Assembly: GCF_050320075.1 (NCBI RefSeq)
Contig: NZ_CP190018.1
Direction: 5' to 3' (one strand)
DNA length: 64,000 bases
Origin: Escherichia coli
Lineage (GTDB): Bacteria; Pseudomonadota; Gammaproteobacteria; Enterobacterales; Enterobacteriaceae
The notes below the pieces were generated by a model. The model made no database searches. It saw nothing but the letters and a program-made list of their open reading frames with translations, and was not told the origin of the DNA. Positions 21,035 through 21,399 of the stretch are shown in pieces; the first letter of the stretch is position 1; each line of letters begins with the position of its first letter. A program made the position numbers and the translations under genes.

Positions 21035-21399
21035 ACCATAGACAACATGAATATTAATGTTACTATCTGGTTGAGACTGTTGATAAAACGTAATAAGGAA
21101 TGCTCTGTTCCTGCAACTGAACAGGCGTGAAACGCTATCCAACAGGATGGATACCGTTTTGTCAGCCAGTTTTATAGATCACACTTATGAGTATGCGTGT
21201 TTCATTTACGGCCAGGAATGCTGATGATGACAACATTACTACCCGTTTTCACTAAGCCTTCCACGTTGGCGCTCAATGCTCTGCGCGCTGGTCGTATTTG
21301 CCGTTTCCTTCTTATCCCGGATGGAAGAATCCGCTGAACGTCGTTCGGCGGCAGTTGTAACACGCGTCGTTTGCTTACAGGGATTATGGCGGGTCGATT

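Follow-up and report, generated by a model that had tools for sequence, protein, structure and literature searches.

In the tnaC-tnaAB operon, a ribosome at or near the stop codon of the leader peptide governs the access of Rho to the RNA beside that stop; termination is Rho-dependent rather than intrinsic, and TnaC requires specific conserved residues together with free tryptophan. The toiL-topAI-yjhQP locus combines an antibiotic-sensing upstream open reading frame (uORF) with Rho-dependent attenuation, and ribosome stalling relieves termination. AcrZ, MgtS, and KdpF are small proteins that modulate transporters; they are conserved, span the membrane once, and have genes located close to, or together with, those of transporters. 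The locus described here, yhiY-yhiI of Escherichia coli, resembles mdtU-mdtJI in that a translated uORF precedes an efflux operon and premature Rho-dependent termination occurs downstream of the uORF (Adams et al., eLife 2021).

We analyzed yhiY within a 64,000-nucleotide stretch of an E. coli genome (the window, contig NZ_CP190018.1), to which all positions refer. The ORF itself is nothing new: yhiY is annotated and validated, a regulatory role has been proposed before, and the literature lists its product as a "validated but uncharacterized" small protein. The combination of a conserved start region with a non-conserved peptide appears to be new here and, coming from sequence comparison, offers a modest new lead. 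We propose that yhiY is probably a cis-acting leader ORF in a structured, Rho-attenuated leader, with a regulatory role that we infer from the published data and the comparisons below.

Identity, translation, and transcript ends of yhiY

The coding sequence spans positions 21224–21337 on the + strand (114 nt, ATG ATG ACA ... CGC TGA) and is defined by the ORF, RefSeq annotation, a Pfam match, and published translation data. Its product, MMTTLLPVFTKPSTLALNALRAGRICRFLLIPDGRIR, has 37 residues and is followed by a TGA at 21335–21337. The short ORF with an AGGA-type ribosome-binding site that the initial annotation had reported upstream of yhiI is present, with the AGGA at 21214–21217 separated by 6 nt from the ATG at 21224. 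The end assigned to it, 21340, lies one codon (3 nt) beyond the stop and has to be moved to 21337, and the description as a 38-codon ORF holds if the stop is counted but not otherwise (37 codons plus stop). Additional in-frame starts are found at ATG 21218, ATG 21227, and GTG 21197.

That this ORF is the already known and annotated E. coli small-protein gene yhiY is essentially certain. It matches the K-12 gene (Weaver et al. 2019; PF23514) in start, place upstream of yhiI, and length of 37 aa, and the sole change from the K-12-type allele is T for P at residue 14. The Pfam PF23514 "YhiY" profile reaches 98.7 bits (cut-off 27; E = 1.5e-28) over residues 1–37 of 37, and a search of NCBIfam with the YhiY peptide gave no match. 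The region is matched in 5,412 of 5,426 complete E. coli genomes, and a feature named yhiY lies beneath the match in 39 of 40 sampled E. coli records. In strain 7/2 the RefSeq yhiY (L001 3225–3338) corresponds to window 21224–21337, with yhiI beginning 62 nt downstream, and the yhiY-yhiI arrangement is identical in K-12-type and ST131-type genomes. The presumed target of control is yhiI (21400–22467, + strand), which encodes an HlyD-family adaptor and is the first gene of yhiI-rbbA-yhhJ, an operon whose products are a membrane-fusion protein and ABC transporter components. The neighboring yhiJ is truncated by IS1 in the source strain, and the yhiY promoter and leader are intact.

Transcription of the leader can be assigned to a sigma-70-type promoter found by a promoter scan at 21039–21066 on the + strand (TAGACA, 16-nt spacer, TACTAT, with a TG before the -10), the sole promoter-like match within 20900–21600. 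The same promoter, TAGACA...TGTTAGTAT, is found ahead of the leader in ST131-type E. coli, E. albertii, Citrobacter, Salmonella, Klebsiella, and Hafnia. We place the transcription start at about 21073, a position that fits the primer of a published yhiI fusion, which begins with GAGACTG at window 21073 (Adams et al.). The first part of the transcript, 21073–21175 (+ strand), is a lineage-specific structured segment: it is present as a single copy in 4282 of 5426 E. coli genomes, is absent from the other lineages examined, and folds at -36.1 kcal/mol (z = -4.58). It ends at an abundant published Term-seq 3' end (K-12 3630827, window 21175; 321,364 reads at OD 0.4 and 643,233 at OD 2.0).

Translation of yhiY, for which the initial annotation suggested ribosome profiling as a check, is well documented. 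Weaver et al. 2019 profiled ribosomes with Onc112 and retapamulin, identified yhiY as their ORF9, and found that initiation in K-12 uses the second of three AUGs (window 21224); 36 of their 38 SPA-tagged small-protein candidates were detected. A 2025 proteomics study that used top-down, DIA, and PRM mass spectrometry found YhiY at ~1000–3000 copies per cell. These translation data were obtained with the K-12 allele, from which the window YhiY differs by one residue. The same proteomics study also detected the leader peptides MgtL and TnaC, so detection of YhiY by mass spectrometry is no argument for a role in trans. The initial proposal of a small protein or leader peptide is thus borne out by a validated small-protein gene (RefSeq, PF23514, published translation).

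Published transcript ends bear on the second half of that proposal. A Term-seq 3' end reported by Adams et al. (eLife 2021) lies at K-12 3630645, 43 nt upstream of the yhiI ATG (-43); in the window this is 21357, 20 nt past the yhiY stop. This end has a significant Rho score of 3.34 and an intrinsic-terminator score of 2.14, under the threshold of 3.0. Reads upstream and downstream of it numbered 762 and 101 without bicyclomycin and 792 and 351 with bicyclomycin (Adams et al.), so that read density drops by ~87% across 21357 and by less with the inhibitor. In the same study, a yhiI fusion carrying the 5' UTR and the ORF was more than 2-fold up in a rhoR66S background, and yhiY-yhiI was named as a candidate regulatory uORF. 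A further 3' end was reported inside yhiI; because the fusion spans the whole yhiI ORF and an internal 3' end exists, part of the Rho effect may sit within yhiI. The Rho-dependent 3' end and the rhoR66S effect support the idea that yhiY is a leader ORF affecting the operon, with regulation of yhiI itself being a candidate. Since yhiY is translated in LB and termination is nevertheless strong, translation as such does not prevent termination.

Our literature search found no published test of the effect of uORF translation or stalling on operon read-through, and nothing usable on inducers or regulators of yhiI-rbbA-yhhJ. For CsrA, papers contained merely incidental co-mentions with yhiI, and none was found for CsrA with rbbA. 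A window listed in a riboswitch-entropy paper was considered and set aside, as it lies 6.6 kb from the operon and is not the yhiY leader.

Conservation of the start region and divergence of the peptide

We collected yhiI loci from one genome per species and compared their upstream DNA. A protein-database search with the 46-aa GTG-extended form of YhiY gave called YhiY entries restricted to Escherichia and Shigella; relatives outside these two genera were found at the DNA level alone, through their yhiI loci. The conserved parts of these leaders are the promoter, a 5' block, the Shine-Dalgarno, AUG-AUG, and the first 4–7 codons. In Escherichia, Citrobacter, Pseudocitrobacter, and S. enterica diarizonae, hardly a position varies in the block TATGCGTGTTTCATTTACGGCCAGGAAYGCTGATGATGACAACATTACT, which comprises the Shine-Dalgarno, AUG-AUG, and the first codons; Kluyvera, Klebsiella, Raoultella, and an Enterobacter show only small changes in it. 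A Shine-Dalgarno at correct spacing and an AUG are kept in every Enterobacteriaceae leader examined. At the yhiI loci of Proteus, Providencia, and Morganella, the upstream DNA is AT-rich and unrelated, and the yhiY leader is absent. A metagenome scan returned chiefly C. freundii-type leaders and added little diversity.

Beyond the first codons the ORFs diverge in sequence, frame, and length. Citrobacter amalonaticus, Pseudocitrobacter, and S. diarizonae have 45-codon ORFs in which only MMTTLLP.F and F.LIP(D/E) are common with E. coli. In the C. freundii complex, every member (16 unique ORFs, metagenome contigs included) carries a 1-nt deletion, which puts the conserved 3' nucleotides into another frame; the ORF closes at a new TAG located 4 nt past the former TGA. 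Within the group formed by Escherichia, Citrobacter, Pseudocitrobacter, and Salmonella, the stop keeps its position. In Kluyvera the ORF is M-T-T-stop, three codons long, while it extends to 78 codons in Raoultella and the Enterobacter and to 88–98 in the Klebsiella oxytoca group; these long ORFs overrun into yhiI out of frame. Hafnia has a different uORF of 50 codons, with its own AGGA, at the equivalent place. Conservation of the reading frame, whose absence from related genomes the initial annotation would have taken as refutation, therefore applies to the start across genera and fails for the frame and length of the remainder. A start that is kept while frame and length are lost favors a leader ORF and disfavors a sequence-specific protein.

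The substitution pattern points the same way. Among Escherichia alleles, dN/dS is 0.26–1.06 for yhiY (dN 0.012–0.104) and 0.020–0.043 for yhiI in the same genomes, and the dS of yhiY is about half that of yhiI. The counts of variable sites at codon positions one, two, and three are 6/3/7 for Escherichia, 14/18/12 for the C. freundii complex, and 20/24/22 for the clade with 45-codon ORFs, so none of the three clades shows a third-position excess in yhiY; among the variable codons of the C. freundii complex, 2 are synonymous-only and 24 change the amino acid. The codon-substitution analysis proposed at the outset thus gives no pattern of purifying selection on the peptide. The low synonymous rate and the invariant synonymous sites in codons 1–7 argue for constraint on the RNA. 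Where the ends of the peptide are conserved, they fall on nucleotide blocks without synonymous variation, and the C. freundii complex retains these blocks even though it reads them in another frame.

These results bear directly on whether YhiY might be a small protein acting in trans, with a sequence that matters, for example by modulating the YhiI-RbbA-YhhJ pump, as AcrZ, MgtS, and KdpF do with their own transporters. Such a role would fit the copy number found by mass spectrometry, the adjacency of the gene to a transporter operon, and the existence of a curated Pfam family, and MMTTLLP at the N-terminus and FLLIP(D/E)G at the C-terminus are maintained as amino-acid sequence in several clades, being common to Escherichia, C. 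amalonaticus, Pseudocitrobacter, and S. diarizonae. We nevertheless consider it unlikely, given the dN/dS values and the absent third-position excess, the retention of the conserved ends as nucleotide blocks at synonymous sites and in a shifted frame, and an ORF length that varies between 3 and 98 codons among other genera. The peptide, as read from its sequence, also has no hydrophobic stretch of membrane-helix length, with a charged or polar residue at least every 10 positions, and the proteomic detection is shared with MgtL and TnaC.

The opposite concern, that yhiY is a functionless chance ORF, was raised as a caveat in the initial annotation. The 366-nt intergenic region also contains ORFs of 39–72 aa in other frames and on the opposite strand, so the length of yhiY is not above chance; ~40% of random variants with 44 substitutions keep the ORF open, which makes the open frame alone weak evidence; and the peptide evolves almost neutrally. 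However, the yhiY annotation and the published translation data contradict a chance origin, the start region hardly varies among genera that differ greatly at synonymous sites of yhiI, and the position of the stop survives a frameshift. Lack of function is accordingly very improbable, and a leader ORF whose start, rather than whose peptide, is maintained remains our preferred reading.

RNA structure of the leader

RNAalifold predicted the same helices, all on the + strand, from an alignment of 17 leaders (A1) and from one of 32 (A4). The outermost, P1, was obtained with three alignments and pairs ATGCGTGTTTCA at 21193–21204 with TGTAACACGCGT at 21356–21367, so that it encloses the entire uORF, and its 3' strand contains the Rho-dependent 3' end at 21357. 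It is the best duplex in 40 unique leaders, at a near-constant position 62–67 nt from the extracted leader end, and U-A, U-G, and C-G pairs are seen at one of its positions; because the 5' strand hardly varies, support for P1 is mostly one-sided. P2 pairs GGCCAGG at 21210–21216, which overlaps the yhiY Shine-Dalgarno AGGA (21214–21217), with GCTGGTC at 21287–21293 in yhiY codons 22–24. Its 3' strand, with the conserved motif CTGGYC, is an island in the otherwise variable middle of the ORF and is kept where the frame differs, as in the C. freundii complex. An invariant hairpin covers the start codon (21225–21238).

Two further hairpins occupy the 3' part of the ORF and the region past its stop. 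P3 (21304–21327) pairs TTTCCTTCT with GGATGGAAG around the invariant loop TATCCC and has A-U, U-G, or U-A as its closing pair. P4 (21331–21351), CCGCTGAAC-GTC-GTTCGGCGG, holds the yhiY stop in its 5' arm, has pair probabilities of 0.93–0.99 in the single-sequence ensemble, and shows covariation that includes G-C/G-U/A-U, U-G/U-A, C-G/U-G/U-A, and A-U/G-C. The published 3' ends at 21357 and 21335, detected at OD 0.4 and OD 2.0, respectively, lie 6 nt past P4 and 8 nt past P3, as expected for trimming back to stable hairpins. Downstream, directly before the yhiI start, lies a block, ACAGGGATTATGGCGGG (21377–21393, + strand), that varies little or not at all in 32 leaders and is the presumed yhiI ribosome-binding region. 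In the E. coli minimum-free-energy fold this region pairs with yhiY codons 21–27, and that pairing is Escherichia-specific.

In alignment A1, 97.4% of cells form standard pairs, as opposed to 36–42% when the partners are slid by 1–3 columns; 4 pairs have changed on both sides. None of 500 shuffles reaches the observed covariation score, a score that related sequences can also yield without structure and that here reflects few independent events. Aligned on their own, Klebsiella and Raoultella again yield P1, here 10 bp long, together with an equivalent of P2 and a hairpin that directly precedes the 3' strand of P1, and the P1-closed fold appears in the minimum-free-energy structure of 9 of 15 single leaders, usually with P3- or P4-like hairpins. 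For E. coli itself, the P1-closed fold has a low ensemble probability (0.01), and its energy exceeds that of the minimum-free-energy structure by 3.4 kcal/mol. The whole leader folded as a single sequence is not more stable than its shuffles (z = -0.37), so the support for structure comes from comparison alone. Searches of Rfam 15 with the E. coli and S. diarizonae leaders gave chance-level matches only, the best at 17.6 bits against a gathering threshold of 36.5.

With P4 lying over the stop of a leader ORF and transcripts ending just beyond, the locus invites comparison with amino-acid-sensing attenuators of the trpL, hisL, or leuL type, in which an intrinsic terminator alternates with an antiterminator. 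Yet the peptide has no regulatory codon run, P4 lacks a U-tract, a scan of the + strand shows no terminator-like site, the published intrinsic score (2.14) is below 3.0, and the 3' end is sensitive to bicyclomycin. By these scores, the bicyclomycin sensitivity, and the lack of a U-tract or codon run, classical intrinsic attenuation is largely refuted, and we give it hardly any credence.

A structured leader could also work as RNA only, as a riboswitch-like or protein-binding element in which the ORF is incidental. P1–P4 are kept, with some covariation, across clades that differ in ORF frame and length; synonymous sites in the first codons are invariant, as are the junction and loop sequences; and a Salmonella yhiI 5' UTR fragment is reported in the literature to be stable and recovered with Hfq. 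An incidental ORF is difficult to reconcile, however, with the Shine-Dalgarno and AUG kept in all Enterobacteriaceae leaders examined, with the different Hafnia uORF that has its own AGGA at the equivalent place, with a frame that in four clades, even after a frameshift, does not close before a stop within P4, and with the initiation of E. coli ribosomes at yhiY. The lack of an Rfam match also means that no known ligand class is suggested. We regard an RNA-only element as improbable.

A further reading is that the yhiY start would be embedded in a conserved, undescribed leader RNA, consisting of P1–P4 and present in Escherichia, Citrobacter, Pseudocitrobacter, Salmonella, Kluyvera, Klebsiella, and Raoultella, in which the RNA and not the peptide is selected and which would serve as a ribosome- or ligand-sensing switch setting the Rho-dependent attenuation of the RbbA pump operon. 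We put this forward tentatively, as a possibility that falls short of being probable.

Proposed mechanism and comparison with known systems

We propose that yhiY regulates, in cis, the fraction of transcripts that reach yhiI. The only part of the leader in which C exceeds G, as in rut sites, is the span of the yhiY ORF, where C/G reaches up to 1.8; as the sole C-rich, G-poor stretch of the leader, the yhiY RNA is a likely Rho loading site. The Shine-Dalgarno and the AUG would be contested between ribosomes on yhiY, on the one hand, and P2 and the hairpin at the start codon, on the other, and a translating or terminating ribosome would melt P3 and P4. Where ribosomes sit or pause on yhiY may thereby set the amount of RNA that is free for Rho, and in E. 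coli yhiY ribosomes could also set access to the yhiI ribosome-binding site. Since the uORF is translated in LB and attenuation is strong, the default state in rich medium would be off. Relief would probably come through changed ribosome behavior or RNA folding upon some signal. A peptide-dependent step, such as nascent-chain stalling, is possible given the conserved MMTTLLP and FLLIP(D/E)G.

This locus offers a testable case of a uORF within a conserved RNA fold before a poorly understood ABC pump with a ribosome-associated ATPase, RbbA. The comparison pinpoints nucleotides for mutation, namely the AUGs, P1, P2, and P4, and our proposal predicts that a peptide knockout will be uninformative unless expression of yhiI-rbbA-yhhJ is measured.

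Considered as a uORF-dependent Rho attenuator, the locus has a uORF in its 5' leader, and conserved stalling residues were not found beyond MMTT(LLP). YhiY is, like AcrZ, MgtS, and KdpF, small and encoded near transporter genes, but it lacks a hydrophobic stretch of membrane-helix length and comparable purifying selection. It can be likened to toiL as a uORF with Rho-dependent attenuation before an operon, the response to antibiotics being described for toiL. Compared with TnaC, residues of the kind that TnaC requires are not conserved across clades in YhiY, and the yhiY stop sits in a hairpin. The C-terminus of MdtU is reported to be conserved in at least 17 genera, and the mdtU system responds to spermidine, whereas the YhiY peptide is not conserved; and, unlike mdtU, the yhiY uORF is enclosed by a conserved long-range helix.

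A structured segment between the promoter and the ancestral leader

We identify a lineage-specific segment of about 112 nt (21067-21178, plus strand; RNA 21073-21175) that separates the conserved promoter from the ancestral leader of yhiI-rbbA-yhhJ, and that carries no annotated feature. Of 5426 E. coli genomes, 4282 carry it in a single copy, a figure that is also the count of genomes matching at least 80% of the region query, which takes in the end of yhiJ. Across the upstream regions compared, the segment was not found in ST131-type E. coli, E. albertii, or other genera.

The RNA of this segment (21073-21175) has a very stable predicted fold (-36.1 kcal/mol, z = -4.58), consisting of a long closing stem and two hairpins, and its 3' limit coincides with a published Term-seq 3' end. 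That end, K-12 position 3630827 (window 21175), was recorded with 321,364 reads at OD 0.4 and 643,233 at OD 2.0, far more than the 27,479 reads at 21357, the published Rho-dependent 3' end just past yhiY (Adams et al., eLife 2021). We propose that 21073-21175 may represent an unannotated RNA of about 100 nt derived from the 5' UTR, or may act as an additional attenuator ahead of yhiY, the 37-codon upstream ORF (uORF) of this leader.

Insertions and frameshifts in and near yhiY

Upstream of the leader, a 768-bp IS1 (19180-19947) links yhiM (DUF2776) to yhiJ (DUF4049), both of them truncated; of yhiJ, a residual ORF is left at 19934-21034. Among 5,426 complete E. coli genomes, only two, YZLc1-3 and Ec-U3, have this exact yhiM-IS1-yhiJ junction. 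Directly upstream of it, the minus strand carries a row of three ORFs (523, 115, and 225 aa; 15614-18229), possibly an IS66-family element, judging by the typical sizes of such ORFs. At the yhiI locus of E. coli E423 (L004, locus positions 1792-2598), an IS1 lies within yhiY itself, past about codon 5, and the resulting hybrid ORF of 35 codons is annotated as hypothetical; rbbA is also a pseudogene in this strain.

A second ORF of 43 codons (21276-21407, plus strand) overlaps the 3' half of yhiY in another frame and stops a few codons into yhiI. In rare natural alleles a frameshift joins yhiY to this frame, and the fused proteins are 59-63 aa long (database entries P0003 and P0007). In the C. 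freundii complex, the uORF uses this frame for its 3' half. The yhiY of Escherichia sp. E1V33 (L006, locus positions 2324-2435) carries a 1-nt insertion that shifts the frame to yield a 45-aa product ending at -42. This frameshift may have arisen by mutation in this strain or may reflect a faulty assembly; a closely similar allele encoding an intact 37-aa protein is represented by the database entry P0018, labeled 'MULTISPECIES [Escherichia]'.

A candidate CsrA-like site before yhiI

The near-invariant block ACAGGGATTA (21377-21386, plus strand) precedes the yhiI AUG by 14-23 nt. The SELEX consensus for CsrA is ACARGGAU, and the block resembles its core, making it a candidate site only. About 20 nt from the block, the yhiI start AUGGA (21400-21405) supplies a second GGA. 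Our literature searches returned only incidental co-mentions of CsrA with yhiI, and no papers for CsrA with rbbA.

Leaders in Hafnia and Salmonella

The leader of Hafnia alvei (L027, locus positions about 2297-2450) combines the same promoter, here TAGACA-16-TAGTAT, with a 50-codon uORF whose sequence is unrelated to yhiY. The last codons of this uORF lie in the 3' arm of a hairpin, and its stop falls directly past it. The occurrence of promoter and uORF in the same leader suggests that the yhiI leader already had a uORF before Enterobacteriaceae and Hafniaceae diverged.

In Salmonella Typhimurium, 'sRNA6' is a fragment of the yhiI 5' UTR, located between STM3587 and STM3588, that is positive by Northern blot and has a start located by 5' RACE. 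An earlier proposal, from Hfq co-immunoprecipitation sequencing, was that it is a processed 5' UTR fragment. Its detection is consistent with a leader RNA that is stable and structured.
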